Made by a program: the position numbers and the translations under genes
In this document: piece after piece, positions 24,664-39,814 of the stretch
Layout of the letters: each line of letters starts with the position of its first letter
How positions within the stretch are numbered: position 1 is the stretch's first letter
Notes under the pieces: generated by a model
Databases searched by the model: none
The model's input: only the letters and a program-made list of their open reading frames with translations
What the model was told of the DNA's origin: nothing
NCBI GenBank assembly: GCA_041480755.1
Contig: JBGPAO010000002.1
Location: 1-46,282, forward strand
Source: Bacteroidia bacterium
Lineage (GTDB): Bacteria; Bacteroidota; Bacteroidia; Bacteroidales; SM23-62
Direction of reading: 5' to 3'
Length of the DNA stretch: 46,282 bases

Positions 24664-26520
24664 ATGATCAGAAAATTCCTAATTTTTCTTGCTTTAAGCG
24701 GGTATTTATTATTTATTTATTTGCCCGCTGGTTCCCAGGAATTCCTTGTCCCTGCTCCGACAGTAGCATCCGGTAGTCAGCGCCACGTCTCTCATCTTAA
24801 AGCCGGCATTCTTGATACGCTGGACCTTCCTTTCTTCGACGACTTCTCACGAAGCGTCGGTTTTCCTGATCCCGGCCTCTGGTCAGATGTATACGTTTTT
24901 ATTAATAACAGTTATCCTGATGATCCTGTTTCTCTTGGTGTAGCCACATTTGACGCCATTAATAGCTCAGGTTACCTGAATGGCGATTCAGACATACCAT
25001 TTGAATCAGATTTCCTTACATCCATGCCGCTGAACCTGGATTACCCCGTACAAAATGATACATGGCTCAGTTTCTTTTACCAGCCACAGGGTTTTGGGGA
25101 TGAACCTGAACCAGGGGATTCGCTTACAGTTGAATTCTATTCTCCTCTCAGTAGCGAATGGAGATCAGTGTGGTCCGTGGAAGGCCGGCCGCTGGCTCCT
25201 TTTACCCGGGTATGGATCCAGGTCGATGACACATCATATTTTCATACCGGATTCAGGTTCAGGTTTAAAAATTATGCCAGCCTCCCAAAAAGCCAGAGCT
25301 TTCTGGGATATGATTCCAATGCCGACCACTGGAACATAGACTATGTTTATCTTGATAAAGGCAGATCAGAAACTGATACTTCAATAAAGGATGTTTCCAT
25401 GATCACCAATCTTACATCCATATTAAAATCTTATGAATCCGTCCCCTGGAGCCATTTCCCCAATGCATTCCTGACAGAGATCCAGCCATCACTGAAAATC
25501 ACTTACAGGAATAATGATATCATTACACGAAATGTTACAAGGTTTTTTCAAATCAGGGACCTGATGTCAGGTTCAGCTCCGTATACTCTCCCCGGCGGAG
25601 CAGTCAATGTTGAACCAGGTGAAAAACATGAATATGAATTTCCTTTTAATTATTCTTTCGATGAAACCAATTATGATTCAGCTATATTCAGCATAATATC
25701 ATTCCTGGTTACTGATGAGGATGACTATAAATGGAACGACACAATAACCCGTTACCAGGTATTCAATAATTATTATGCATATGATGACGGGACAGCCGAA
25801 GCCGGGTATGGACTAAGCGGTGAAGGAACGGCAGGTGCAGCGGTTGCTTACAGGTTTAAGACCTATAAGGAAGATACACTCAGGTCTGTCAGGATGTACT
25901 TCAACCGGACTGCGGATAATTCAAGCCAGGTGTATTTCCGTCTTGCAGTCTGGGATAATGACGAGAATAACGATCGTCCGGGGAACCTGATTTGCTCCAT
26001 GCCGGGTAACAAGCCGGAATATCTTGATGAACTGAATAAATTTTCTACCTACACTTTCGATACACTGCTGGTTGTTTCTGATTTTTTCTATGTCGGATGG
26101 ATCCAGACTTCAACTGCCCTGATGAATGTCGGATTTGACAAGAATAATAATAACCGGAATAATATCTTCTACAACCTTGGACAGGAATGGTTTAATTCTT
26201 CATTTAACGGATCTCTCATGATAAGGCCTGTCCTGGGTAAAAAGTCTGCAGGGACATCATCAGTAAACAACCTGACGTCGAATGAATTGCAGGTATTTCC
26301 AAATCCTGCTTCAGATTTTATCCGTTTTGAATTGCCTTCATATACAGGTGATTTTCCAGCAACAATTAGTATCTTTAATCTTCAGGGGAAACTTGTTTCC
26401 AGTATCATGGTGAAGGATGAGAACATATCGGTATATAATCTTTTACCCGGAATATATATACTCAGGGCTGAAATCCCCGGATTAGGCGCTTACAATACCA
26501 AACTGCTGATATCAAGATAA
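24664..26520 (+). CDS. Secreted protein of unknown function with a T9SS type-A C-terminal sorting domain
   Basis: It has a signal peptide (MIRKFLIFLALSGYLLFIYLPAGSQE). The C-terminal ~80 aa (LQVFPNPASDFIRFEL...GIYILRAEI...KLLISR) match the Por/T9SS CTD pattern. Confidence 0.8.
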   Translation: MIRKFLIFLALSGYLLFIYLPAGSQEFLVPAPTVASGSQRHVSHLKAGILDTLDLPFFDDFSRSVGFPDPGLWSDVYVFINNSYPDDPVSLGVATFDAINSSGYLNGDSDIPFESDFLTSMPLNLDYPVQNDTWLSFFYQPQGFGDEPEPGDSLTVEFYSPLSSEWRSVWSVEGRPLAPFTRVWIQVDDTSYFHTGFRFRFKNYASLPKSQSFLGYDSNADHWNIDYVYLDKGRSETDTSIKDVSMITNLTSILKSYESVPWSHFPNAFLTEIQPSLKITYRNNDIITRNVTRFFQIRDLMSGSAPYTLPGGAVNVEPGEKHEYEFPFNYSFDETNYDSAIFSIISFLVTDEDDYKWNDTITRYQVFNNYYAYDDGTAEAGYGLSGEGTAGAAVAYRFKTYKEDTLRSVRMYFNRTADNSSQVYFRLAVWDNDENNDRPGNLICSMPGNKPEYLDELNKFSTYTFDTLLVVSDFFYVGWIQTSTALMNVGFDKNNNNRNNIFYNLGQEWFNSSFNGSLMIRPVLGKKSAGTSSVNNLTSNELQVFPNPASDFIRFELPSYTGDFPATISIFNLQGKLVSSIMVKDENISVYNLLPGIYILRAEIPGLGAYNTKLLISR

Positions 26521-26588
26521 TTGCAGACCACAATATAATCACAGATCACAGGTAAGTTGCTGATCACCAAATAATTTCAAATCCTTAT

Positions 26589-27665
26589 ATGTTTGAAGAC
26601 GAACTGCCCGAACAACCTGGTGTCCATGAACCCAACCGGATCACAGAGGATGAATTGTCCGAACAATCTGAACTTTATGAACACTATCGGATCATAGTGG
26701 ACAAAGGCCAGCAGCCACTTCGCATCGATAAGTATCTGTTTAACCGTCTCCCGCAAACTTCGCGTACGCGAATCCAGAATGCCGCAATGGCAGGGAATAT
26801 TCTTGTTAATGAAAAATCTGTCAAATCAAATTTCAAAGTCAGGCCTGAAGACATAATCAGTATTGTCCTGCCGCATCCGCCAAGAAAAACAGAAATAATA
26901 CCGGAAAACTTACCTCTTAATATCATTTATGAAGATGATGATTTACTGATTATCAATAAGGAAGCCGGTATGGTAGTGCATCCGGGAATCAGCAATTTTA
27001 CAGGTACAATGGTGAATGCCCTGTATTATTATTTTAAAGACCTCCCCTTGTTCAAAAGCGGGGATATAAGGCCGGGACTGGTTCACCGCATCGACAAAAA
27101 TACTTCAGGCATCCTTGTTGTGGCAAAAACTGAGTTTGCTTTGAACCACCTTGCCAACCAGTTCTACTACCATAAAATAAATCGGATATATAATGCTTTG
27201 GTATGGGGTATACCTGCCAGCAGTGAGGGTACGATTGAAGGAAATATAGGGCGGAGCCAGAAAGACAGGAAAAAAATGAAGGTTTATCCGGGTGGCCTGC
27301 ATGGAAAACCCGCAATAACCCATTACAAAGTTATTGAAGAACTGGGCTATATAAGCCTTGTCGAATGCAAGCTTGAAACAGGCAGGACCCATCAGATCAG
27401 GACTCATTTCGAATACATTAAACATCCCGTGTTTAATGATGAAGTTTACGGCGGTGACAGGATCATTAAAGGAACCACCTTTACGAAGTACCGGCAATTT
27501 GTAAAAAATTGTTTTGAGATCATTCCCCGCCAGGCCCTCCATGCCAAATCACTTGGCTTCATCCATCCCCGCACCGGCAAGGAAATGTTCTTTGATTCAG
27601 ACCTGCCGGATGATATGAAAAGAGTGATTGAAAAGTGGAGGAAATACATCATTGGAAGAGCGTGA
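26589..27665 (+). CDS. rluD: 23S rRNA pseudouridine synthase, RluD family
   Basis: It has an S4 domain (RIDKYLFNRL...) and the RluA-family catalytic motif HRIDKNTSGILVVAKT, plus GRTHQIR. Confidence 0.9.
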   Translation: MFEDELPEQPGVHEPNRITEDELSEQSELYEHYRIIVDKGQQPLRIDKYLFNRLPQTSRTRIQNAAMAGNILVNEKSVKSNFKVRPEDIISIVLPHPPRKTEIIPENLPLNIIYEDDDLLIINKEAGMVVHPGISNFTGTMVNALYYYFKDLPLFKSGDIRPGLVHRIDKNTSGILVVAKTEFALNHLANQFYYHKINRIYNALVWGIPASSEGTIEGNIGRSQKDRKKMKVYPGGLHGKPAITHYKVIEELGYISLVECKLETGRTHQIRTHFEYIKHPVFNDEVYGGDRIIKGTTFTKYRQFVKNCFEIIPRQALHAKSLGFIHPRTGKEMFFDSDLPDDMKRVIEKWRKYIIGRA

Positions 27666-27701
27666 GGCGTGAAGCGTGAATCGTAAGTCGGGGGAGTCGG
27701 G
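27660..27701. repeat. Heptamer array I (GCGTGAG GCGTGAA GCGTGAA TCGTAAG TCGGGGG AGTCGGG)
   Basis: Six consecutive 7-nt units read directly from the sequence. The first unit contains the rluD TGA stop codon. Confidence 0.75.
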
Positions 27702-27744
27702 AGAAATGTTAAACTTGAAGCAGAGAGCGAAGGTCGGGAAACTT

Positions 27745-27835
27745 AATGATGATTTATGAGTGATGAATTATGAGTGATGAGAACAGGGGGCAAAGAGCGG
27801 AGAGCGGAGAGCGGAGAGCGGAGGGCGGAGGGCGA
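27745..27835. repeat. Heptamer array II: 13 in-phase 7-nt units (5x ANTNATG, 2 transition units, 6x AGRGCGR)
   Basis: The units are AATGATG ATTTATG AGTGATG AATTATG AGTGATG AGAACAG GGGGCAA AGAGCGG x4 AGGGCGG AGGGCGA. Phase is unbroken and the plus strand is purine-rich. Confidence 0.85.
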
Positions 27836-27998
27836 AGAAATGACTAAAATGACAAATGACTGAAATTCGGCGGAAGAGATGGCGAATAGAATAAAGACAG
27901 GAAAATTGAACCAAAAGAAAAGCAAACTGGAAGACATAAAACCTGTTATAAATACAGTAACAGCAAAAAAAACATAATTTTAAATTTAAATATTCGCT

Positions 27999-28047
27999 GC
28001 TCTATGCTCTTAGCCCTAAGCTCTCTGCCCCATGCCCCATGCTTCAG
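27999..28047. repeat. Heptamer array III (GCTCTAT GCTCTTA GCCCTAA GCTCTCT GCCCCAT GCCCCAT GCTTCAG), inverted relative to array II
   Basis: There are seven units with consensus GCYCYNN, the reverse complement of the AGRGC core of array II. It ends in the 14-mer GCCCCATGCTTCAG, which also occurs at 36943..36956. Confidence 0.85.
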
Positions 28048-28084
28048 AAAAAAGTTATAATTTTATGAGTTGAATTCAGATTCG

Positions 28085-29071
28085 ATGAAGAAGAACATCG
28101 CAATTATAACAGGAGGCGATTCCTCTGAGATCGTGATTTCCCTCAAAAGTGCTGAGCAGGTCCGTTCATGCCTGGATCCGGGGAGATATAATACATTCAT
28201 CGTTTTTATAAAAAACAACGACTGGCATGTAAATCTTGATGGCGGTGAACAAACCCCGATTGATCGTCATGATTTTTCTTTTAAAACCAGAGGGCATAAA
28301 ACAAAATTTGATTATGCGTTTTTTGCCATGCATGGTCCTCCCGGTGAAAATGGAATACTGCAGGCCTATTTTGATCTCCTGAATATTCCATATAGTACAT
28401 CAGGTGTGCTTCCTCTGGCGCTTACATTTAACAAATATGTGTGTAAGATATTAATTAGCAGTGCGGGGATAAATGTACCTGTGGCAGTTCTTATTAGAAA
28501 GAATGAACAGTTTAAAGCAGAGGAAATTCTTGCTAAAACAGGAGTGCCCTGTTTTGTAAAGCCAAACCGCGGTGGTTCCAGTTTCGGGATTTCCAGGGTA
28601 AATGACCCGGCTGATCTGGAAAGGGCGATTGTTATAGCATTAAAAGAAGATACAGAGGTCCTGGTTGAGGAATATATAAAAGGTTCAGAGCTGACATGCG
28701 GTCTGGTTAAACTTAAAGCTAAAGAACTAATTTTCCCGGTTACTGAAATTGTCAGCAAAAAGGAATTCTTTGATTATGAAGCCAAATATACCTCCGGAAT
28801 GGCCGATGAAATAACTCCCGCACGTGTATCCAAAAAAATATCCTCAAATTGCCAGGCCATCTCCTCCCGGATCTATTCCCTTCTAAACTGCTCAGGAATT
28901 GTCAGGATTGATTTCATCTGCAGTGATAATAAGCCATATTTCCTTGAGCTGAATGGAATACCAGGGATGACAAAAGAAAGTATCGTCCCCCGGCAGATCC
29001 GTGCCTCCGGTCTTACGGAATCTGCGGTGTATGAGATGATTATCAAAGATACTTCCGGCTGGACCGGGTAG
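28085..29071 (+). CDS. ddl: D-alanine--D-alanine ligase
   Basis: It has MKKNIAIITGGDSSE, the FAMHGPPGENG motif and an ATP-grasp domain (CFVKPNRGGSSFGISRV, LELNGIPGMT). I prefer the ATG at 28085 to the TTG at 28070. Confidence 0.9.
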   Translation: MKKNIAIITGGDSSEIVISLKSAEQVRSCLDPGRYNTFIVFIKNNDWHVNLDGGEQTPIDRHDFSFKTRGHKTKFDYAFFAMHGPPGENGILQAYFDLLNIPYSTSGVLPLALTFNKYVCKILISSAGINVPVAVLIRKNEQFKAEEILAKTGVPCFVKPNRGGSSFGISRVNDPADLERAIVIALKEDTEVLVEEYIKGSELTCGLVKLKAKELIFPVTEIVSKKEFFDYEAKYTSGMADEITPARVSKKISSNCQAISSRIYSLLNCSGIVRIDFICSDNKPYFLELNGIPGMTKESIVPRQIRASGLTESAVYEMIIKDTSGWTG

Positions 29072-29106
29072 TTCTCGGTTCAGTAGCCCCTGACTGGCAG
29101 GCAGGG

Positions 29107-29176
29107 GTTCCGTGTTCCGGGTTCCAGGTTCTAAGTTCCGGGGTCCGGGTTCCAGGTTTAGAGTTTAGAGTTTATT
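29107..29176. repeat. Heptamer array IV (GTTCCGT GTTCCGG GTTCCAG GTTCTAA GTTCCGG GGTCCGG GTTCCAG GTTTAGA GTTTAGA GTTTATT)
   Basis: Ten in-phase 7-nt units fill the spacer between the convergent ddl and M28 peptidase stop codons. They are preceded by two looser units (GTTCTCG GTTCAGT) and a small hairpin (CCCCTG-9 nt-CAGGGG, 29087..29107). Confidence 0.85.
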
Positions 29177-29179
29177 TCC

Positions 29180-30553
29180 CTAGAGATCGTATTTATCAAT
29201 GAGATAAACCAGCGATGCAATTCCTGCACTCCCTAACTGAAGTTCACGAATATTAACCTGTTCAAAGGTGTCGTTGGGCGAATGATGGTAGTCAAAGTAA
29301 CGTTGCATATCAGTTTTGGGACTGATCATAAGTGTTCCGAATTGCTGAAGGGGACCGATGTCCGCACCACCTCCGCCCCTGCCAAACTGGTTAATCCCGT
29401 ACGGTTCAAAATATTTTTGCAGTGCAACAAACCTTTCAAGTCTTTCGTCTTTTGCAGAAAAACTGAATCCATAAGGTGTCAGTCCTCCCTCATCTGATTC
29501 AACTGCAGCATAATAATGACTCTCTTTATTCAGGGCTGCCAGTTCGGCATATTTCAAGCCACCTCGCAAGTCTATTTCCTCATCCATAAACATGACAGCA
29601 CGTATGGTCTTTTTCGGTTGTATGCCCAGAAACTTAAATAATCTTAAAACTTCGATGGACTGGACACAACCGATACCATCATCATGAGCACCCTCACCCG
29701 TGTCCCAGGCATCAATATGGCCTCCAACAGTAATTATTTGCTCGGGATGGACAGATCCTCTAAGTTCGCCAACTACGTTTAATGATGGAACCTCCTCCAT
29801 GTTCCGGCAGTTGCTCACTAAATGGAGTTCCAGTGCGGGATCTTCTTTCAAAAGATTATTTAGCAGGTCGGCATCCATGGTTGAAACACAAACAGCAGGA
29901 ATTTCTGGTACTCCTTTCTCATAATAAAGGACACCTGTATGTGGAAAATCATCGATAGAAGTAGTTAATGATCTTATAATCACTCCTATAGCACCGTATT
30001 TTGCAGCTTCGGAAGCTCCGCCCGTTCTTTGATATACTGCCTGTCCGTAAGCTGCAAAAGTGTTATATAAGGTAGGATCCATAGGCCTGTTGAAAAAAAC
30101 AATCTTACCGCTGACATTTTCTTTGCCCAGCTTTTCGAGATCTCCAAAAGTTTTTACTTCTATAATCCTGGCGGTTATACCTTCATCACTTGTTCCTACC
30201 GATGTGCCAAGTCCTGAAATGGTGAGTTCATGATTTCCTGAGACATGTGAGCTAACTGCTGCAAATTCCCGGTCACCTCTTACCCATCTTTTTACCATAA
30301 GTTCCTGTAGAAATACTGTGTCTAATCCCATATCAAGCATAACCTGCCGGGTATATTCAATAGCGGCCTCAGCCTGAGGTGTACCAGAAATTCTTCCTTT
30401 TGTATTTTTACACAGGTACCTTAAATTCTCGTAAGCAATCCTGCTGGATAAAGCTTGATCAAATATTCTTTTAATCAGAAGCGAATCCTGGTCCTGGGAG
30501 GATAAAATTAACGATGCAGAAAGAAGCATTAAAAGAATTCCAGACTTTTTCAT
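29180..30553 (-). CDS. M28 family zinc aminopeptidase with a PA domain
   Basis: It has a signal peptide and the metal-ligand motifs GGHIDAWDTGEGAHDDGIGC, MDEE and YHHSPNDT. Confidence 0.85.
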   Translation of the reverse strand: MKKSGILLMLLSASLILSSQDQDSLLIKRIFDQALSSRIAYENLRYLCKNTKGRISGTPQAEAAIEYTRQVMLDMGLDTVFLQELMVKRWVRGDREFAAVSSHVSGNHELTISGLGTSVGTSDEGITARIIEVKTFGDLEKLGKENVSGKIVFFNRPMDPTLYNTFAAYGQAVYQRTGGASEAAKYGAIGVIIRSLTTSIDDFPHTGVLYYEKGVPEIPAVCVSTMDADLLNNLLKEDPALELHLVSNCRNMEEVPSLNVVGELRGSVHPEQIITVGGHIDAWDTGEGAHDDGIGCVQSIEVLRLFKFLGIQPKKTIRAVMFMDEEIDLRGGLKYAELAALNKESHYYAAVESDEGGLTPYGFSFSAKDERLERFVALQKYFEPYGINQFGRGGGGADIGPLQQFGTLMISPKTDMQRYFDYHHSPNDTFEQVNIRELQLGSAGIASLVYLIDKYDL

Positions 30554-30673
30554 TTAAACCTGTTTTCGATTATGGACCTAATATAGAAATAATCAATCTT
30601 CAAAAAAAGGGTAACTTTGTAATATTGAACAATTATTCTCTCCAGGATGGTTTATTTTTTTTGCAAATTTTTC

Positions 30674-31402
30674 ATGAAAATAACCTTAAGGAATATTTTC
30701 ATTTTTCTGGATTTGTTTATTCTTCAATATAATTATTCCCAGTCAACCGGTATAACTGATTCAAATGTCCTGAAATGGAAATCATATTTTAATCAATTCT
30801 ATGGAGCGGATTACAATCTGATAAATGGAATCAGATATGTTAATTTGTATCCCTCGGCAGAAGGTCATCCTTTTCTTGGCGAAAACAGCTTTTATAAGGG
30901 AAATTTGATCATAAATGACCTGATCTACAGGGATGTGGAAATAAAATATGATATATGTAACCAGGAGATTATTCTGCAATACCCCTATTTCACAGGAAAT
31001 CCGGATAAGATTATTCTTATCAAAGAGTTTATTGATGAATTTGAAATGGATGGCAGGTTATTCAGGAAATACACTTTTCCTGAAACTGAGCCGCGTTTTT
31101 ATCAGGTTGTTTCCCGTGGCAATATTTATTGCCTGTACTATTGGAAGAAGGATCTTCAAAAAGGTTCATCGGTTCAAAGCTTTTATAAGTATTCGCCCGA
31201 AAGGAAAGTATCATATCTTGTCATTGATAACAAACTCTGCTCTTTCAGTGGCAGAAAATCTTTTATAAAATTATTTCCTTCGCAATACCATAAGAAAATA
31301 ATACAATACCTGAAATCAAATAAAATGTGGATCAGAAATGACACTGAAATAAAAATCCGGCAGCTTATGGATTTTTGCAACGAAATAATTGCGGGGAATT
31401 GA
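30674..31402 (+). CDS. Hypothetical secreted protein
   Basis: The ORF has a plausible signal peptide from the internal start MKITLRNIFIFLDLFILQYNYSQS. I recognise no family. It sits at the head of the TonB-receptor block. Confidence 0.5.
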   Translation: MKITLRNIFIFLDLFILQYNYSQSTGITDSNVLKWKSYFNQFYGADYNLINGIRYVNLYPSAEGHPFLGENSFYKGNLIINDLIYRDVEIKYDICNQEIILQYPYFTGNPDKIILIKEFIDEFEMDGRLFRKYTFPETEPRFYQVVSRGNIYCLYYWKKDLQKGSSVQSFYKYSPERKVSYLVIDNKLCSFSGRKSFIKLFPSQYHKKIIQYLKSNKMWIRNDTEIKIRQLMDFCNEIIAGN

Positions 31403-34136
31403 TAAACAGTCATTTAATAGCAATGTTGTTCAGCTTGTCCTGCCTTTCGTGGAGCGCCGGTGATCCTGATATTTTTTTCTCCGGAGATTTTCAAAATACT
31501 ACGTTTGATCAGTTTGTCAGTGATATCGAAACGAAATCAGGTGGTCATTTTTATTATGTTGAGGAATGGATTTCCGGTATAACGATTACTGTATCAGGAG
31601 ATAACATTTCACTTGCCAATGTTCTGGTTAAATACCTTCCTGACAAAGGGCTGTACTTCTATATAGATGATCAAAAAAACGTTTTCATAACCCGGAATCT
31701 CGAACTCATTTCTGAACTTCCTTATTACCAATCCTTTAATCAACTTCTCGTACCTGATGGGGAATCAGACGAGAAAGAATTGACACAAATTGAAAAGAAA
31801 TATATTGAAGGCAGGGCTCCCAGGGCAGCTGAAACCATTGTAATTGGAAAAGAAGACGGGGATAATATTCATGGAAAGGCTGCCATTAGTGGTAAATTAT
31901 GGGATATAGAATCCGGTGAGCCTTTGATAAGAGCTAATATCTATGTTGAAGAATTAAAAACAGGTGCGGCTACAGATATTAACGGACAATTCAACCTGGT
32001 TCTGGTTCCCGGGCAATACAGTGTAATAATAAGCTGTCTGGGAATGAAAGAAATCAGGTATTTCTTGCAGGTTCATTCAAATGGACAACTGAACATCCCG
32101 ATGGAGAAAAAAATAATTCCGATCCATGAAGTTGTCGTTAAAGCTGACCTTTACCAGAATGTGCGTGGTATGCAAATGGGATATGAACGGCTGGATATAA
32201 AAACCATTAGAGAAATTCCAATGGTTATGGGTGAGAAAGATGTTCTGAAAGTCGTTCAATTACTCCCTGGCATCCAGAGTGTGGGAGAGGGATCATCTGG
32301 AATAAATGTACGGGGAAGTCCTGCAGACCAGAACATTTTTTATATAAACAAAATCCCGGTTTACAATCCGTCTCACCTTTTTGGATTTTTTTCTGCTTTT
32401 AGTCCTGATATTATTAAAGATTTCAGTTTCTACAAGAGTAATGTGCCGGCAAAATATGGCGGCAGGCTTGCATCATTTTTTGATATCTTAACTAAACAGG
32501 GAAATAATAAGAAGTTCTCAGCCAGGGGAGGCATTAGTCCTGTTACCGGTCATATTGCAATAGAGGGACCTTTGAAAAAAGAACACAGTTCGTTTATTAT
32601 TAGTGCCCGTTCCACTTATTCTGATTGGCTTTTGTCAAGACTGGAAGATCCGGATATCAGAACAGTGATGCATCATTTCATGACTTTACAGCTAAAATCA
32701 ACTCAGAGATTAATGACAAAAATCTTTTAAAAGGTTTTTTGTATTATTCCTATGATCGTTTTTCCCTCGCTGCCATAAATAAGTATCAATATTCAAATCT
32801 TGGCGGATCAATGGAATGGCGGCATCTTTTTTCCTCGTCCCTTTTAGCAGATCTAACCGCAGTTTATGGTAAATATTCTTTTAATGCAGTCGATAATGTT
32901 TTCCCTCCAACAGCTTACAGTCAGAAATACGCGATAAATCATTATGAATTCAAAACCGACTTTATATGGTACCCTGGAGAGAAACAAACTGTGACATTTG
33001 GAGGGAATTCAATCATATATGGCCTTATGAGAGGGAATATTCTGCCTTCAGGAGATGAATCTTTAAGAGTCCCGGTCGTACTGGGAAATGAAACAGGCGT
33101 TGAAAGTGCCATTTATTTCAGTGATGAGATCAAACTATTACCCAGACTTACCATTTATGGCGGATTACGTTACAGTTTCTATGCATTGCTGGGACCCCGA
33201 ACTGTTTATAAATATTATGCAGACGGTCCCAAAAATGAACTTAACATCAATGACAGTCTGATATTCAAGCAGGGAGAAATAATTAAGACATATTCCGGGC
33301 CGGAACTAAGAGGGGCAATCAATTACAGTACCGGAACAAATAGTTCTCTGAAAATATCTTATAACCGGATCCGGCAATATCTTTTTATGCTCAGCAATAC
33401 TATTGCAATATCACCGACTGATCAATGGAAACTGTGTGACTATTATATTAAGCCGCCCTTCTCTGACCAGGTGTCAGCCGGTTTCTATAAGGATTTTCCT
33501 CTTACTGATTTGAATACCTCTGTCGAATTATACTATAAAAAGATTCATAATGCTGTTGATTTCAAAGATGGGGCAGGTTTCCTTACCACACAAAATATTG
33601 AAACGGAATTATTACAGGGAAATCAGTCCGCATACGGTATTGAGATGATGGTAAAGAAAAATGCAGGGAAACTGAGTGGTTGGGTTTCTTATGCTTATTC
33701 GCATTCAGAAGTCCTGATAAATGGATACTACCCATGGGGAAAAATCAATTCCGGTTATCCATACCTTGCAAATTATGATAAACCTCACTCCTTTAACCTG
33801 ATTATGAATTATCACACAAATCGCCGTTTAAGTTTCTCATCCAATGTAGTTTATTCAACAGGCCGGCCTGTTACTTATCCCTTATCTATTTATTATATCA
33901 ATGATCAGCCTTTTATAAATTATTCTTTAAGAAATGAATACAGAATTCCCGATTACTTCCGTAAAGATTTTTCAATAAATTTTGAAGGTACTCTCAAAGC
34001 CAGAAAGATTGCTCATAGTTACTGGATGATTAATATTTACAATCTGACAGGCAGAAAGAATGCCTATTCGGTTTTCTTTAAATCGAGAATGGTAAAATTA
34101 ACGGTTATAAGATGTCAGTTTTCGGTACGCAGATAG
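31375..34136 (+). pseudogene. TonB-dependent receptor (STN-like N-extension, CarboxypepD_reg domain, plug, barrel) interrupted by a 1-nt frameshift
   Basis: ORFs 31375..32730 and 32625..34136 are consecutive parts of one receptor. The first carries ISGKLWDIESGEPLIRANIYV...TDINGQF and the plug EKDVLKVVQLLPGIQ...INVRGS. The second carries the barrel, starting at ASFHDFTAKIN...YYSYDRFSL. The reading frames switch near 32655-32665. Confidence 0.75.
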
Positions 34137-34169
34137 TCACCATCTCCTGGAATTTTAAGCTAGGCAACT

Positions 34170-34622
34170 ATGCAAGTGAATAAAACCATATTGCTTTTAT
34201 TATTAATAATCACTTTGACGCAAGGTTGTATTGATCCATACTATCCTGAGATCAATGATAAGCAGAATTCAATTATAATTGACGGGACTTTGACTGACAA
34301 GGAGGGCTATCATTATATACATGTCTCTCGATCAGTCTCATACGAATCTCCAGAGAACACCCCAATACAGAACTGCACTGTTGAGGTAATTGATGATTCA
34401 GGAAATACAATTCATTTTTATGAAAGCGAGCCCGGGCTTTATGAACAATGGATAGATCAGGATTTTTTAGAAACCGGCAGGAAATATAAATTAAGAGTGA
34501 TTTCCGCAGGCTCGGTATATGAATCACTATATGAAACAATGCTTCCCTGCCCTCCTGTTCATAATGTATATTATGAAATTGAAAAAAAGAAACCGCTGAT
34601 CCGGAAGTTTCAGAGGACTTAA
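34170..34622 (+). pseudogene. DUF4249-type lipoprotein, N-terminal half only
   Basis: It has a lipobox (LTQGC) and the pattern IIIDGTLTD...V.VIDDSGN...GLY...GRKYKLRV, typical of DUF4249 partners of TonB receptors. The ORF ends after about 150 aa, just past an A7 run, so the usual C-terminal half is missing. Confidence 0.55.
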
Positions 34623-34651
34623 AAAACCATCTAAATACATATGAAAAAAGT

Positions 34652-35884
34652 GTGATTAATGACGTGATAAAATGTTACACTTCACAGGAAACATATAAAA
34701 AAAGAAAAAAAGTTATCCTTAATATTGAAATGCCTGATGAAACATTGATATCTCCTGATGGATATTGTGTGTCTGTAATAAAACCCGGCGCGGCAAACTC
34801 AAATATCTATGGACTGGATTTAAGCAGTTATAAAGAACATGAGATTCCTGCAGAAATTAAATTTTATCCAGAGATTAAAGGTATCTCTCTTTCCGGCAGC
34901 ATAATTAAAAAGAATCTGAATATTCCCTCTGCATACTCTGAAGTCCATTTATCAGCGCTGGGAGAAAATCCATATTATATCGGATACCTGACCGAACAGC
35001 AGGGCAGGTTTCTTTTTTCATTACCCGACTGGCATGAGCCGAGAAATTTTTTTATCGGGACCAAAACGAAAGATGAAGATCCTGTTGAAATACTTATTGA
35101 TAATGATTTTTCAACCGATATTATTGATTTGCCACTGACACCATTTATTTTGTCTGCAGAAAAAATAAATATTGCAAGGGAAATCATGTTTAATATGCAA
35201 CTTGACAAAGCATACATGGAAGCCCGGGATCTTCCTGCTGACAGTACCATTGTCAGTCCAAAAAACAATTTTTTCTATGGAGATCCCATTTTTACTTATA
35301 ATCCGAATGATTATGTAAAATTACCGACACTCGAAGAATTCTTCCTTGAACTGATACCCTCTGTTTCAATAATTAAAAGAAGAGAACGCTCAAATTTTAT
35401 CATGAAAGGAGATCAACCTGACCTTGCATTTTATGAACCGCTTATTCTTCTGGATTTTGTTCCGGTTTTTAATGCAAATAATTTATTAAAGATCTCACCT
35501 GAATATATGCGCCAGATCGAAGTAATTAACGCTACCTATGTCAGGGCCAATATGTGCTTTGGAGGGATAATCAGTATTTTATCTAAAAAAGGTGATATGG
35601 CAGGAATAGACCTGCCAGAGAATTCATACTTCTTCGATTTTAGAACATATGAACCTCAGAAAGATATAACCTTTCCTGATTATTCCGGTTCAACAGCAAA
35701 TGAAAGAATTCCTGATTTCAGAAATACCATGTACTGGAATCCTGCTCTGAAGGGAAGTCCGGATAAAACTATTTCATGTGAGTTTTTCACTTCAGATAAT
35801 ACAGGAGAGTATATTATACTTATCAGGGGCATTTCTGAACAGGGATCTATCCTCGAAGGTCACTGTACATTTACTGTGGAATAA
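34652..35884 (+). CDS. C-terminal remnant of a large CarboxypepD_reg/plug-like surface protein (no signal peptide; probably 5'-truncated)
   Basis: The GGIISILSKKGD plug-like motif and the C-terminal IPDFRNTMYWNPALKGSPDKTISCEFFTSDNTGEYIILIRGISEQG tail recall large Bacteroidota Plug-domain proteins. The frame is open upstream to 34583. The only start codon is the GTG at 34652. Confidence 0.45.
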   Translation: MINDVIKCYTSQETYKKRKKVILNIEMPDETLISPDGYCVSVIKPGAANSNIYGLDLSSYKEHEIPAEIKFYPEIKGISLSGSIIKKNLNIPSAYSEVHLSALGENPYYIGYLTEQQGRFLFSLPDWHEPRNFFIGTKTKDEDPVEILIDNDFSTDIIDLPLTPFILSAEKINIAREIMFNMQLDKAYMEARDLPADSTIVSPKNNFFYGDPIFTYNPNDYVKLPTLEEFFLELIPSVSIIKRRERSNFIMKGDQPDLAFYEPLILLDFVPVFNANNLLKISPEYMRQIEVINATYVRANMCFGGIISILSKKGDMAGIDLPENSYFFDFRTYEPQKDITFPDYSGSTANERIPDFRNTMYWNPALKGSPDKTISCEFFTSDNTGEYIILIRGISEQGSILEGHCTFTVE

Positions 35885-35925
35885 AAACCATGATAATACC
35901 CTTCGCACGATAATCTCTGTCCCAA

Positions 35926-36282
35926 TCACTCCTCAGGTGTTTTCCTGTTTTTTGGTGAAAGAAACAGGAAATCATCGCACAGGATTTCGATTGATTTTCT
36001 TTTATTACCGTCTTTATCCTCCCAGTTTGAGGTCTGGATCTTGCCTTCAACATAGAGTGCATCGCCTTTTTTCACATAATCCTCTATAACTCCTGCCCTT
36101 TTATTCCAGGCAACCACTGTATGCCATTCTGTTTTCTGAACCTCAACTCCATTCTTGTCTACAAAGATCTCGTTAGTAGCAAGCGGAAACCTTACAACTT
36201 TTGTTGAGTCATTGATGTTATTGACTTTGGGTTCGTCACCCACATGACCGACAAGGGTCACTTTGTTAATGCCTTTTTTCAT
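35926..36282 (-). CDS. ssb: Single-stranded DNA-binding protein (short form)
   Basis: The OB fold is present: INKVTLVGHVGDEPKV...TEWHTVVAWNKRAGVIEDYVKKGDALYVEGKIQTSNWEDKDGNKR. It is 118 aa long and ends in KNRKTPEE. Confidence 0.85.
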   Translation of the reverse strand: MKKGINKVTLVGHVGDEPKVNNINDSTKVVRFPLATNEIFVDKNGVEVQKTEWHTVVAWNKRAGVIEDYVKKGDALYVEGKIQTSNWEDKDGNKRKSIEILCDDFLFLSPKNRKTPEE

Positions 36283-36381
36283 TTTTGTAGTTTTTTGGTT
36301 ATAGAAATAAACTATCGCTAAACATTAATGTCAGAAACATCGAATTATCGTAAGTCGAAGGGATTTTTTTTTTCATGGAGT

Positions 36382-36451
36382 TAAGAGCTGAGGGCGGAGA
36401 GCAGAGAGCTAAGAGCCAAAAGCAAAGAGCAGAGGGCTTAGTGCATAGAGC
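36382..36451. repeat. Heptamer array V (10 units, consensus NNAGAGC)
   Basis: The units are TAAGAGC TGAGGGC GGAGAGC AGAGAGC TAAGAGC CAAAAGC AAAGAGC AGAGGGC TTAGTGC ATAGAGC. They lie about 90 nt upstream of the four-helix-bundle gene. Confidence 0.85.
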
Positions 36452-36539
36452 CAATAATTGTAATATGTTTTATAACATGTGTAAAGAAAGCGATTTGAGT
36501 TAATACTCTGGATTAAAAGTCATATTAAATAATATAAAA

Positions 36540-36902
36540 ATGTCAACCTTTAGATTTGAAAATCTGGAAATCTGGAAATTCGCTATTGAAGTGACGATTA
36601 AACTTCTGGATATTGCTGATTTCATGGAACAGAAGAGACTGTTTGGATTTTCCAATCAGCTAAGAGACGCAGCTCTCAGCATTACTAACAATATAGCTGA
36701 AGGTTCAGGATCCTTTTCGGATAAAGAATTTGGAGTATTTCTAAACTATTCAAGAAGATCTGTCTTTGAATGTGCAAATATCATATTTGTACTATGGTTT
36801 AAACATTATATCAGCGAAGAAATAAAATCACAAAGGCTAAGGGAACTTGACCTTCTCAGCAAACGCATCACAGCCTTCCGTAAAAGTCTAAAGCTCCAAT
36901 AG
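36540..36902 (+). CDS. Four-helix-bundle protein (23S rRNA intervening-sequence protein / Avd-like family, TIGR02436/PF05635 type)
   Basis: It is 120 aa and has the family hallmarks FENLEIWKFAIEV, QLRDAALSITNNIAEGSG and RRSVFECANI. Confidence 0.8.
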   Translation: MSTFRFENLEIWKFAIEVTIKLLDIADFMEQKRLFGFSNQLRDAALSITNNIAEGSGSFSDKEFGVFLNYSRRSVFECANIIFVLWFKHYISEEIKSQRLRELDLLSKRITAFRKSLKLQ

Positions 36903-36907
36903 TCTTC

Positions 36908-36963
36908 GCTCTTAGCTCTTCGCTCTTCGCTCTTAGCTCTTCGCCCCATGCTTCAGGCTTCAA
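36908..36963. repeat. Heptamer array VI (8 units, GCTCTTN then GCCCCAT GCTTCAG GCTTCAA), inverted relative to array V
   Basis: The units are GCTCTTA GCTCTTC GCTCTTC GCTCTTA GCTCTTC GCCCCAT GCTTCAG GCTTCAA. The array starts 5 nt after the four-helix gene stop codon. Its last units overlap the gcvP stop codon and final codons on the opposite strand. Confidence 0.85.
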
Positions 36964-39814
36964 GGGCCGAACACGAGCATACCAGATTCCTGTCCCCATA
37001 AGCATCATCAATTCTCGCCACCGAAGGCCAGAATTTGTTGTCAGCGATCCAGGAGAGTGGATAGGCGGCTTTTTCCCTGCTGTAAGTATGGGTCCAGCTC
37101 CCGGAAGCTATCTCTTCAGCGGTATGCGGGGCATTCTTTAGTACATTGTCAGCAGGATCGGCCTTTCCATCTTTTATCTCCATGATTTCGCGATGGATTG
37201 ACATTAGTGCTTCGGCAAACTTGTCAAGCTCATAAAGTGATTCACTCTCGGTTGGTTCTACCATAAGTGTTCCATGAACCGGAAACGAGAGAGTTGGAGC
37301 ATGAAAACCATAGTCCATAAGACGCTTGGCTATGTCTGCTTCGGTGATATCTGCCAGCTGCTTGAAATTCCTGCATTCAAGTATCATTTCATGACCTACA
37401 AATCCATTCTTCCCTGTATAGAGTACGCTGTAATATTCTTTAAGCGAGGCTGCCAGATAATTAGCGTTAAGTATTGCAACGCGCGTAGCATCAGTCAGTC
37501 CACTGCCACCCATAAGCATGATATAGGCATGTGAGATTGTCAGGATCAAAGCGCTTCCCCATGGTGAACCTGATACTGCCGGGATTCCCCTTACGCCACC
37601 TGTCTCAGCCAGCGGGTGGGTCGGGAGAAATTCCACCAGGTGTTCAGCAACAACAACCGGCCCCATGCCCGGACCTCCCCCTCCATGAGGTATGGCAAAA
37701 GTCTTATGAAGATTCAAATGGCAGACATCCGCTCCAATCAGGGCAGGATTTGTCAGTCCCACCTGCGCATTCATATTCGCTCCATCCATATAGACCTGTC
37801 CGCCGCAATCGTGGATAATCTTTATCATATCCCTGATCTGCTCTTCAAAAACACCATGCGTTGAAGGATAAGTGATCATGAATGCCGCCAGGTCAGACTT
37901 ATGTTCCTCTGCCAGAGCCTTCAGGTTATCCAGGTCGACATTTCCTTTCTCATCACATTTAACAACAATAACCTGCATGCCGGCCATTACAGCACTTGCA
38001 GGATTTGTTCCGTGGGCTGAAGACGGGATGAGACAAATATTCCTGTGGTTTTCATTCCGGCTTTCATGATAGGCACGGATGACCAGAAGTCCCGTGTATT
38101 CACCTGCAGCACCCGAATTTGGCATAAACGATATCTCACTGAAACCTGTAATCGTTTTCAGGTCCTTTCCAAGATCATTAATCAGCTCCTGGTATCCTTC
38201 AGCCTGATCTATGGGCACAAATGGATGCAGGTTCCCGAATTCCGGCCAGCTTAATGCGAACATTTCCGCAGCAGCGTTCAGCTTCATTGTGCAAGAACCC
38301 AGTGAGATCATGGAATGAGTAAGAGAGAAATCTCTGCGCTCAAGCTTCTTAATATACCTCATCATTTCAGTCTCGGAATGATACCTGTTGAATACCTTTT
38401 GTTTCATGAATTCCGATGACCTGCGGTTGTCCTTGCTGACAGTGGTTTTGCCAGGATCAAATGAAAGCGGACTGTACTTCCTGCCGACAGGAACAGCAAA
38501 GATCTCAAGGATATCTTTTATATCATTGACTGTCGTTGTTTCATCCAGGCTTAACTGCACCCTGTTATCGTCAGGAAAATGGAAATTTATCTTTCTTTCC
38601 CTTGCAAGCTTTTTAATATACTCTGAATGAACCAGTTGAGGCATTTTAATATTGATGGTGTCAAAGAATTCCTGGTTATCCTGTGAATACCCAAGCTCCC
38701 TGAGTTTTTCAGAAAGCATTACCGTCAGCGAATGAATTCGTGTGGTAATTTTTTTCAATCCATCCGGTCCGTGCCAGGCACCATACATCCCCGACATTAT
38801 CGCCAGAAGCGCTTGTGAAGTGCAAATATTTGAAGTCGCTTTTTCCCGCTTTATATGTTGCTCCCTGGTTTGAAGCGCCATTCGCAGTGCAGGTTTCCCG
38901 TGCCGGTCAATTGAAACTCCAATAATCCTTCCCGGCATACTTCTTTTAAATGTTTCCCTTGTTGCAAAAAAACCTGCATGCGGACCACCGTATCCCATCG
39001 GAAGACCGAATCTTTGTGTTGAGCCGACAACAATATCCGCATTCCATTCCCCGGGAGGCTTAAGCAGTGCCAGACTCAACAAATCGGCAGCAATGCATGA
39101 AACAATATTAAGGGAATGTGCCGATCCCAGGAAGCTGCTGTAATCCATTACTTTCCCGTCAGCCGCCGGATATTGAAGAATTAAACCAAAAAATTTATCA
39201 GTCAGTTTCCATTTCCTCCAGTCATCTGTAACAAGCTCAATATTTAATGGTTTCGACCTTGTTTTAAGGAGATCCAGGGTCTGGGGAAAAATATTTTTGT
39301 CAGCAAAAAATTTATTGGCCCCCCTCTTAATCATTTCACGGGAACGGGCATTGAACATCATTATCATCGCCTCTGCCGCCGCTGTTGGTTCATCCAGCAA
39401 AGATGCATTAGCTATGTCCATCCCGGTCAGTTCCATGATCATCGTCTGGAAATTCAGCAGCGCTTCCAGGCGCCCCTGCGAAATCTCGGCCTGATAAGGC
39501 GTGTATGAAGTATACCATGACGGGTTTTCAAGAATATTTCTCTGGATTACCGGGGGCAGAAAAGTATTATAATAGCCCAAACCAATGTATGTTCTGAATA
39601 ATTTGTTTTTCGCACCAATTGCTCTCAGGTTGTCAAGGTATTCGTATTCGCTCATCCCATCAGGAAGTTTCAACGGCTGTTCATTAAGTATGAAAGCAGG
39701 TATAGTTTTCCTGATAAGTTCGTCCATTGATTGAACTCCGATCTTTTTGAGCATCCGCGGTATTTCTGATTCCCTCGGGCCAAGATGCCTGCTCGAAAAA
39801 TCTGTTGATGACAT
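36953..39814 (-). CDS. gcvP: Glycine dehydrogenase (aminomethyl-transferring), single-chain P protein
   Basis: The full length resembles GcvP (FSSRHLGP, SYTPYQAEISQGRLEALLNFQ, the PLP-lysine region CHLNLHKTFAIPHGGGGPG, and YGDRNLVCSC near the C-terminus). I prefer the start MSSTDFSSRHLG at 39814 to the upstream ATG at 39895. Confidence 0.92.
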   Translation of the reverse strand: MSSTDFSSRHLGPRESEIPRMLKKIGVQSMDELIRKTIPAFILNEQPLKLPDGMSEYEYLDNLRAIGAKNKLFRTYIGLGYYNTFLPPVIQRNILENPSWYTSYTPYQAEISQGRLEALLNFQTMIMELTGMDIANASLLDEPTAAAEAMIMMFNARSREMIKRGANKFFADKNIFPQTLDLLKTRSKPLNIELVTDDWRKWKLTDKFFGLILQYPAADGKVMDYSSFLGSAHSLNIVSCIAADLLSLALLKPPGEWNADIVVGSTQRFGLPMGYGGPHAGFFATRETFKRSMPGRIIGVSIDRHGKPALRMALQTREQHIKREKATSNICTSQALLAIMSGMYGAWHGPDGLKKITTRIHSLTVMLSEKLRELGYSQDNQEFFDTINIKMPQLVHSEYIKKLARERKINFHFPDDNRVQLSLDETTTVNDIKDILEIFAVPVGRKYSPLSFDPGKTTVSKDNRRSSEFMKQKVFNRYHSETEMMRYIKKLERRDFSLTHSMISLGSCTMKLNAAAEMFALSWPEFGNLHPFVPIDQAEGYQELINDLGKDLKTITGFSEISFMPNSGAAGEYTGLLVIRAYHESRNENHRNICLIPSSAHGTNPASAVMAGMQVIVVKCDEKGNVDLDNLKALAEEHKSDLAAFMITYPSTHGVFEEQIRDMIKIIHDCGGQVYMDGANMNAQVGLTNPALIGADVCHLNLHKTFAIPHGGGGPGMGPVVVAEHLVEFLPTHPLAETGGVRGIPAVSGSPWGSALILTISHAYIMLMGGSGLTDATRVAILNANYLAASLKEYYSVLYTGKNGFVGHEMILECRNFKQLADITEADIAKRLMDYGFHAPTLSFPVHGTLMVEPTESESLYELDKFAEALMSIHREIMEIKDGKADPADNVLKNAPHTAEEIASGSWTHTYSREKAAYPLSWIADNKFWPSVARIDDAYGDRNLVCSCSALEA

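Follow-up and report, generated by a model that had tools for sequence, protein, structure and literature searches.

The window analysed here is a stretch of 46,282 nucleotides from an uncultured Bacteroidia bacterium of the Bacteroidales (contig JBGPAO010000002.1 of assembly GCA_041480755.1, forward strand). Between its gcvP and ssb genes lies a cassette of about 590 bp, in which a gene for a four-helix-bundle protein of the PF05635 family is enclosed by two complementary arrays of 7-nt repeats. The intervening sequences (IVSs) of 23S rRNA in Coxiella and Leptospira likewise carry an open reading frame (ORF) of this family in the loop of a long stem formed by terminal inverted repeats. The Coxiella IVS is a 428-nt element with the PF05635 ORF within a 28-bp terminal stem, which is cut mid-stem by RNase III; the results of its authors suggest that the ORF is not expressed (PMC4990558). 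Size (428–444 nt in Coxiella, about 590 nt here) and a sporadic distribution that suggests horizontal spread are further likenesses (PMC4990558). In contrast to these IVSs, the window element lies outside rRNA (not in helix 9, 25 or 45 of 23S, its flanks being ssb and gcvP), and its arms are tandem heptamer arrays instead of a unique inverted repeat.

Heptanucleotide repeats of heterocystous cyanobacteria are known as STRRs. Arrays of the heptamer GGGAATC were counted 186 times in one Xanthomonas genome, with 70 convergent pairs and an average distance of 28 nt from the upstream ORF (Rehm et al. 2015, PMC4692102). Nostoc carries GGGGA(T/C)T arrays (PMC4692102) and the Beggiatoaceae carry TAACTGA repeats (PMC4679880); G-quadruplex formation was proposed as a function of the GGGAATC arrays (PMC4692102). 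In text searches, neither PMC4692102 nor PMC4679880 was found to mention a four-helix-bundle, S23 or intervening-sequence gene beside or between arrays. The window element resembles the Xanthomonas and Nostoc arrays in having tandem 7-nt units in intergenic DNA just downstream of ORFs, many convergent inverted G-rich pairs and a rapid turnover of length and sequence between related species (PMC4692102). In addition, the Xanthomonas and cyanobacterial four-helix-bundle genes described below are flanked by exactly the GGGAATC and GGGGAYT flavours. The RGRGC flavour of the window is not among the flavours described.

A low-copy gene flanked by inverted copies of a short repeat is also found where repetitive extragenic palindromes (REP/REPIN) accompany a REP-associated tyrosine transposase (RAYT), and there too the same repeat is dispersed through the genome as hairpins without an ORF, its flavour varying with the lineage of the gene. 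RAYTs are HUH tyrosine transposases and REPs are single palindromes; the window protein, in contrast, is a 120-aa helical bundle without a known catalytic site, and its repeats are tandem heptamers. Avd is a nucleic-acid-binding, reverse-transcriptase-binding accessory protein of diversity-generating retroelements. It has the fold of the window protein (template modelling (TM) score 0.75 to PDB 4DWL, a five-chain deposition) but only about 10% sequence identity to it, and no reverse transcriptase, template or variable repeats are present at the window locus. The cassette differs from insertion-sequence transposons and MITEs (miniature inverted-repeat transposable elements) in that no target-site duplication was seen when filled and empty sites were compared and no transposase is contained in the unit. 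No literature linking the PF05635/TIGR02436 family with heptamer arrays was found; earlier notice elsewhere is possible, the curated TIGRFAM and InterPro descriptions lying outside the search. Heptamer arrays are already known; for their pairing with a four-helix-bundle gene in an IVS-like, stem-bracketed cassette no published description was found, and there is a credible chance that the window element is the visible part of a broader, undescribed system.

The cassette between gcvP and ssb

The segment 36374–36967 is a discrete unit of about 590 bp, placed exactly where gcvP has its 3' end and consisting of a stand-alone PF05635 gene in the loop of a long hairpin whose complementary arms are built of 7-nt repeats. 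Sequence comparisons place this unit in a large class that extends across phyla. Its parts are as follows.

36374–36967, plus strand: whole cassette of about 594 nt (left arm, spacer, four-helix-bundle ORF, right arm), with bounds from the comparison of filled and empty sites
36382–36451, plus strand: left (5') arm of ten NNRGRGC heptamers, rich in G and poor in C
36463–36478, plus strand: palindrome ATATGTTTTATAACAT, 3' of the left arm and 5' of the start codon, conserved in relatives
36540–36902, plus strand: four-helix-bundle gene, 120 aa, PF05635/TIGR02436
36903–36967, plus strand: right (3') arm of GCYCYNN heptamers, reverse-complementary to the left arm

A sequence-only reading of the window had proposed that a 120-aa ORF of a four-helix-bundle family is enclosed by inverted 7-nt arrays, ten heptamers on the left and eight on the right, which can pair in many registers and would fold better than shuffled sequence. 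All of these points were borne out. Six of the ten left heptamers are exact NNAGAGC units and the other four are one base off (TGAGGGC, CAAAAGC, AGAGGGC, TTAGTGC), while the eight heptamers of the right array at 36908–36963 are five GCTCTTN units followed by GCCCCAT, GCTTCAG and GCTTCAA. The right array begins 5 nt past the TAG stop codon, as had also been noted, and the 5 nt in between (TCTTC) correspond to the tail of a unit. Its periodicity continues past the eighth heptamer, which ends at 36963, to about 36967. The array runs into gcvP; the outer right-arm units, read on the minus strand at 36953–36967, are the last four codons and the stop of that gene (ALEA*).

The period of seven was evident from autocorrelation, a score of 25 or more matches out of 35 being reached at lag 7 by five regions of the window. 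No region of the window reached that level at lags 4–6 or 8–12, and none did so in 200 block-shuffled windows. Both cassette arrays were also detected by Tandem Repeats Finder. When the arms were compared without gaps, the eight best registers shared one offset modulo 7, with 59–80% identity. In the RNA fold of 36340–36975 the arrays pair as a stem around the ORF, with a free energy of -176.5 kcal/mol against -149.1 +/- 5.5 for shuffled sequences (z = -4.98), and the left arm pairs with the right arm in both the minimum-free-energy and the centroid structure.

The palindrome ATATGTTTTATAACAT is present in the orthologous loci L002 and L003, in locus L250, which has no ORF, and in the type-B cassette of L247 and L246; a variant is found in L244. 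It may be a promoter or operator; a scan for sigma-70 promoters and terminators is uninformative for Bacteroidota. A further sequence, ATCGTAAGTCG, stands to the left of both elements of the window and was considered as a cassette terminus; it was rejected, being host sequence upstream of ssb according to the empty site.

The window protein matched PF05635 with an E-value of 1.6e-22 (80.1 bits, cut-off 33.8), its sole Pfam match, and TIGR02436 with an E-value of 3.6e-21 (75.4 bits, cut-off 24). Its AlphaFold model consists of four long helices in a four-helix bundle, at a predicted local distance difference test score (pLDDT) of 96.4. Foldseek matched the model to 2GSC (XCC0516, TM 0.87), 2RLD (BT_0352, TM 0.82) and Avd 4DWL (TM 0.75), each of which was deposited with five chains. 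Avd is a pentamer. The protein is mildly basic, with an isoelectric point (pI) of 9.2 in a family whose median is about 8.7. No defence or phage family was matched in PADLOC or PHROGs, and no relatives were found in viral contigs. The encoded protein probably binds nucleic acid, given its homologue Avd, the five-chain deposition of its three closest structures and the pentameric state of Avd; its most likely partners would be the heptamer arrays.

Among orthologues at this site, the ratio of nonsynonymous to synonymous substitution rates (dN/dS) was 0.05–0.13 at dS values of 0.8–2.8, and by this measure the ORF is under strong purifying selection. The exception was L002, where the ratio was raised to 0.45 by a divergent C-terminus. 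In that 90% identical orthologue (L002, 6001–6357) the C-terminus (…GTRPSQQTNIAFRKSLP) looks like the result of a double frameshift. Arrays are present on both sides of the gene in all orthologues of this set despite saturated synonymous sites, and the arrays must therefore be either maintained or continually regenerated.

That the cassette is a discrete unit, and that orthologous genes keep related flanks, had likewise been predicted, and both predictions agreed with what was found at the gcvP-ssb site of relatives. An empty-site search through gcvP in species-representative genomes gave a gcvP only 68% identical at best, and ssb stood beside gcvP in none of 80 loci, which served as the controls below. 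Close relatives were found in metagenomes with the neighbouring ssb protein as query, their ssb proteins being 81–96% identical. Four of these fragments (L244, L245, L249 and L251) carry the same cassette between gcvP and ssb, and related heptamer flanks are kept in these four as well as in L002 and L003. In L247 the cassette at this site encodes another member of the family, with only 55% identity, and the short contig L246 has the same sequence upstream of ssb, the gene lying beyond the contig end. In L247 (1–775), and in L246, GCTCCAT units stand on one side and about 13 AGACAAG units on the other. These two loci suggest that one cassette was replaced by another at a fixed site. In L250 the arrays and the inner palindrome are kept and the ORF is gone.

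Empty sites were found in L248, with a 91-nt spacer and a gcvP ending in CSCT*, and in L254, with a 114-nt spacer. In L248 the gcvP stop is joined directly to an A-run and the 'ttacgataatt' upstream of ssb, which corresponds to the window from 36373 downwards. The cassette bounds of about 36374–36967 were obtained by aligning filled sites with L248, L254, L244 and L250. The gcvP genes of L244 and L250 run a few codons into the array before they stop. A more distant relative, L253, has a 516-nt gcvP-ssb spacer (1985–2500) in which several short, REP-like palindromes of the form CGACTAAAAGTCG / CCGACTTTCAGTCGG stand in the place of heptamer arrays. On these comparisons, the cassette is a discrete unit that is present, absent or exchanged as a block at one site, gain and loss being indistinguishable in these fragments.

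Heptamer arrays with and without the gene

The association of gene and arrays was followed in 80 loci encoding relatives of the window protein (45–64% identical) together with two site orthologues, in all 82 genes and 689 kb (set 1), from Bacteroidota, Verrucomicrobiota, Planctomycetota, Nitrospirota, Desulfobacterota, Proteobacteria and others. When arrays of periods 5–11 were counted, set 1 held 192 of period 7 against 17, 4, 3 and 1 of periods 8, 6, 9 and 5. With a detector that called runs of at least three in-register cores within 300 nt of the gene, an RGRGC run was found upstream of 56 of the 82 genes, a GCYCY run downstream of 49, and both in 42. The background was 0.014 runs per 300 nt, so that the enrichment at the gene is about 50-fold, and 133 of the 185 RGRGC/GCYCY runs are no more than 400 nt from a four-helix-bundle ORF. 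As controls, 80 loci without a four-helix-bundle gene were picked through gcvP (670 kb). RGRGC and GCYCY runs were both absent from them; the 17 arrays of period 7 that they hold belong to other flavours, and no other period has more than four arrays.

The placement of the arrays is also regular. From the stop codon to the downstream array the median distance is 20 nt, and from the end of the upstream array to the ATG it is 43 nt. Among phyla with Shine-Dalgarno sequences, many loci have an upstream distance of only 0–20 nt, and the last GGAGC units there stand at the expected position of the ribosome-binding site. An array this close to the ATG leaves no space for a promoter between them, and we infer that both arms must be on the transcript in such loci. 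Of 70 loci, 54 have the gene running in the same direction as its two neighbours. Many of the Verrucomicrobiota copies are located between genes of polysaccharide operons.

A second collection (set 2) was obtained with the solved Xanthomonas protein XCC0516 as query and holds proteins 42–82% identical to it. It contained 100 period-7 arrays against at most 14 of any other period, and their flavours vary by locus, examples being GGGAATC, GTGAGAC, GTGATGA, GGACAAG, GGTTAGT, CAGTTGT, GCGAATG and GCTGTTA; about 23 flavours were met across 23 loci. The upstream and downstream consensus units of one gene were reverse complements, with at most one mismatch, in 73% of cases, against 4% for units taken from different genes. 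A comparison of arm duplex energies within and between genes of set 1 had also been significant but was confounded by taxon composition, and the consensus-unit test was used in its place. As the heptamers differ among family members, the AGAGC core is not general; what is conserved, judged by this covariation of whole arrays, is the period of seven and the complementarity of the arms, not a particular motif. The expectation that four-helix-bundle genes would be enriched beside heptamer arrays thus held strongly in two distant subfamilies and many phyla.

Of 94 upstream arms, 86 were G-rich, and of 86 downstream arms, 78 were C-rich. The use of the G-rich upstream arm as a sign of gene polarity was rejected, since an inverted pair reads G-rich first on either strand. 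Because such a pair is identical on both strands, the G-rich arrays converge on its centre and the orientation of the gene is not informed by them. In each of three data sets convergent G-rich pairs outnumbered the opposite arrangement (44 to 11, 32 to 8 and 39 to 1), the exceptions being mostly arms from two adjacent elements. Inverted pairs 300–700 nt apart enclosed a four-helix-bundle gene in 31 of 40 cases in set 1 and in 27 of 35 in set 2; those that did not were mostly arms of two adjoining elements.

Arrays were also approached without regard to the gene, through 80 loci chosen solely for containing (GGGGAYT)3, mostly from Nostocales and Xanthomonadales. Most inverted pairs in these loci are short hairpins without an ORF, and in array-rich cyanobacteria the arrays bracket ordinary genes too. 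As predicted, the cyanobacterial four-helix-bundle gene of L357 is preceded by a G-rich GGGGAYT array and followed, 284 nt downstream, by the complement of that array. The Xanthomonas gene of L164 is flanked by GGGAATC, the flavour of its own genome. Arrays without an ORF that lie near a four-helix-bundle gene matched the flavour of that gene in 44% of cases, against 9% expected from arrays of other loci.

Several single loci are recorded here. In Calothrix (L388, 2341–3114) three nested inverted pairs (GGTAATT, CCCTGCT and CCCAATC with their complements) surround an ORF of 140 aa that does not encode a four-helix bundle, and such loops can thus carry other genes. In two Flavobacterium loci without a four-helix-bundle gene (L139, 5940–6042; L142, 5900–5957) a GTTTCAG/CTGAAAC heptamer hairpin stands directly after gcvP, so that heptamer hairpins also stand alone in Bacteroidota. 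The deltaproteobacterial locus L072 has arrays of several flavours (GGCGAAT, GGAGCAG, GGAGGTC and TTCGGAT, at 1640–1780, 2310–2530 and 4610–4850), one of which lies inside an uninterrupted 610-aa ORF and is therefore translated there.

The window itself contains further heptamer arrays.

27787–28047, plus strand: inverted pair without an ORF in the rluD-ddl spacer, of the same flavour as the cassette, with AGAGCGG units at 27787–27833 and GCTCT-type units at 27999–28047
27659–27781, plus strand: arrays of other flavours (GCGTGAR, GTCGGGG, TGATGAR), starting within the last rluD codons
29104–29178, plus strand: solitary GGGTTCC/GTTTAGA array that takes up the spacer of the convergent gene pair ddl and peptidase

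The RNA fold of the rluD-ddl pair gave z = -2.79. Its right arm is 73% identical to the right arm of the cassette over 59 nt, including an identical GCCCCATGCTTCAG block, and the rluD-ddl spacer, including the interval between the arms, contains no four-helix-bundle ORF of at least 50 aa. The spacer as a whole (27659–28047) combines five or more heptamer flavours, and the TGA stop of rluD is part of a GCGTGAR unit. The GTGAGAC and GTGATGA flavours adjoin four-helix-bundle genes in other genomes. No inverted partner of the solitary array at 29104–29178 was found in the window.

Readings of the cassette

The cassette is best read as an IVS-like, hairpin-bracketed gene. Its anatomical part is near certain, and the reading as a whole package is considered probable, with some reserve. 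Since in most loci the gene is co-directional with both neighbours and the arrays abut its start and stop codons, the two arms are likely to be co-transcribed. With both arms on one transcript, an imperfect double-stranded stem of at least 40 bp would form; in the window it could form in gcvP-ssb read-through RNA even if the left arm is outside the sense mRNA. Such a stem would be a substrate for RNase III, as in IVSs, and its cleavage would release the cassette RNA from the host transcript and separate the flanking cistrons. This RNase III step, drawn from the analogy with IVSs, is held more tentatively and may well prove wrong. Excision would allow the cassette to reside between host genes at little harm. 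Tandem heptamers would make the pairing tolerant of register slips, and a unit that contains a stop triplet would place a stop in every frame within three units, so that an interrupted host ORF would end fast.

Several observations weigh against the IVS-like reading. The window ORF is clearly under selection, unlike the Coxiella IVS ORF, which the results of its authors suggest to be unexpressed (PMC4990558). The pairing of the arms is imperfect, at 4–6 of 7 positions per unit, and each arm seems to be expanding its own unit variants. The window cassette is antisense to both neighbours, an arrangement seen in only 3 of 70 loci, and its left arm may therefore be outside the sense mRNA. Duplex energies of sense and antisense arms did not differ (52 loci, p = 0.16), and with equal stability the complementarity could be kept at the DNA level. 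In addition, the four-helix-bundle gene is present in only 2 of the 80 GGGGAYT-array loci. Arrays that so greatly outnumber the genes have a life of their own, which the IVS-like model leaves unexplained.

The main rival is a partnership on DNA of the REP/RAYT kind, in which the cassette would be the master copy of a family of dispersed heptamer-array elements. Its protein would act in trans on arrays that have the flavour of its own, spreading, maintaining or using them, and inverted arrays without an ORF would be MITE-like derivatives. The proposal is compatible with the IVS-like reading and is regarded as possible, if rather unlikely. The excess of arrays over genes in the GGGGAYT loci (two genes in 80) and in Xanthomonas campestris (186 arrays with 70 convergent pairs, PMC4692102) speaks for it, as do the flavour match of nearby ORF-less arrays (44% against 9% expected) and the GGGAATC and GGGGAYT flanks of L164 and L357. 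Two cases resemble derivatives directly, namely L250, where the ORF was lost in situ with arrays and inner palindrome kept, and the ORF-less pair of the window, which has a 59-nt right end in common with the cassette. Gain, loss and replacement at one site and the strong purifying selection on the protein also fit. Against this, no nuclease or recombinase fold can be recognised in the 120-aa helical bundle, the compared sites showed neither a target-site duplication nor a defined terminal sequence, and array-rich genomes bracket ordinary genes with arrays too. A shared flavour within a genome is also expected from common descent or local gene conversion, and polymerase slippage may suffice to expand heptamer repeats (Mrazek 2007, cited by PMC4679880 and PMC4692102). 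A wider form of the proposal would join stand-alone PF05635 proteins and heptamer arrays throughout bacteria in one RAYT/REP-like system, in which the protein specifies, binds or propagates arrays of its own flavour and ORF-less inverted arrays are non-autonomous derivatives or substrates; this wider form is put forward tentatively, as a somewhat unlikely prospect.

The arms might instead serve the gene itself as an autoregulatory switch. A multimer of the protein would attach to the repeated units of one arm in the mRNA that encodes it, in the way that spaced triplets are bound by TRAP and HutP, and this binding would compete with the arm-to-arm stem that hides the ribosome-binding region. 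The conservation across phyla of a 5-nt RGRGC core with a 2-nt variable spacer in set 1 is consistent with such binding, as are the GGAGC units 0–20 nt before the ATG in Shine-Dalgarno-using phyla, the five chains in all three closest structures and the mildly basic character of the protein (pI 8.6–9.2). However, the flavour in set 2 differs at almost every locus though the proteins are 42–82% identical to the query, and arrays without a gene are the majority. In Bacteroidales, moreover, about 90 nt, including the conserved palindrome, separate the left arm from the ATG downstream, so that the arm is possibly outside the mRNA. A switch of this kind is judged unlikely.

It is very unlikely that the arrays are functionless by-products, that is, slippage-prone filler or terminator-like intergenic hairpins in spacers that the gene merely tends to occupy. 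In many genomes the commonest long simple repeats are those of seven nucleotides (Mrazek 2007, cited by PMC4679880), the gene-less controls still favour period 7 (17 arrays against at most four), and cyanobacterial arrays bracket ordinary genes. Such a by-product would nevertheless have to be reconciled with the roughly 50-fold enrichment at the gene and the absence of that flavour from the controls, with arrays on both sides at dS above 1, with arm complementarity across more than 20 flavours, with the dominance of convergent G-rich-first pairs (44 to 11, 32 to 8 and 39 to 1) and with the presence or absence of the whole unit as a block.

A true 23S-rRNA IVS or an Avd gene of a diversity-generating retroelement, although of the same protein family and fold, is refuted at this locus: the sequence-only reading had seen no rRNA, reverse transcriptase, template or variable repeat, and, in agreement, no Rfam match was obtained in 26500–37500 even at E-values up to 1, two conserved 23S motifs were absent from loci L001–L163, the Pfam hits of the orthologous locus L002 (Plug, DUF4249, MG2, SSB, GDC-P, Lactamase_B, PCMT and Bac_transf) included no reverse transcriptase, no template/variable-repeat pair was found in 26000–46282 (about 10 kb on each side of the gene), where the two right arms are the only direct repeat of at least 40 nt, and the protein had no phage or defence family match and no relative in viral contigs.

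Meaning for the protein family and the repeats

To our knowledge, the PF05635 'IVS protein' family has thousands of stand-alone copies and solved structures, and no known function outside retroelements. An excess of 7-nt tandem repeats in bacterial intergenic DNA has been known for decades and is unexplained. These two puzzles are joined in one unit here, which gives an experimental handle on both. Genes between complementary arrays occur in Bacteroidota, Verrucomicrobiota, Planctomycetota, Nitrospirota, Proteobacteria, Cyanobacteria and others, and among cultivable carriers with solved structures Xanthomonas campestris (XCC0516) is certain and Bacteroides thetaiotaomicron (BT_0352) is a possible candidate. 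The arrays alter the 3' ends of host genes, as in the gcvP tail of the window, and are hotspots of assembly and annotation error.

The cassette suggests that rRNA intervening sequences are one special case of a general stem-bracketed cassette. If true, a RAYT/REP-like system would explain why heptanucleotide repeats are the most over-represented of long simple repeats, and it would also explain the role of the widespread 'S23/IVS' four-helix-bundle proteins.

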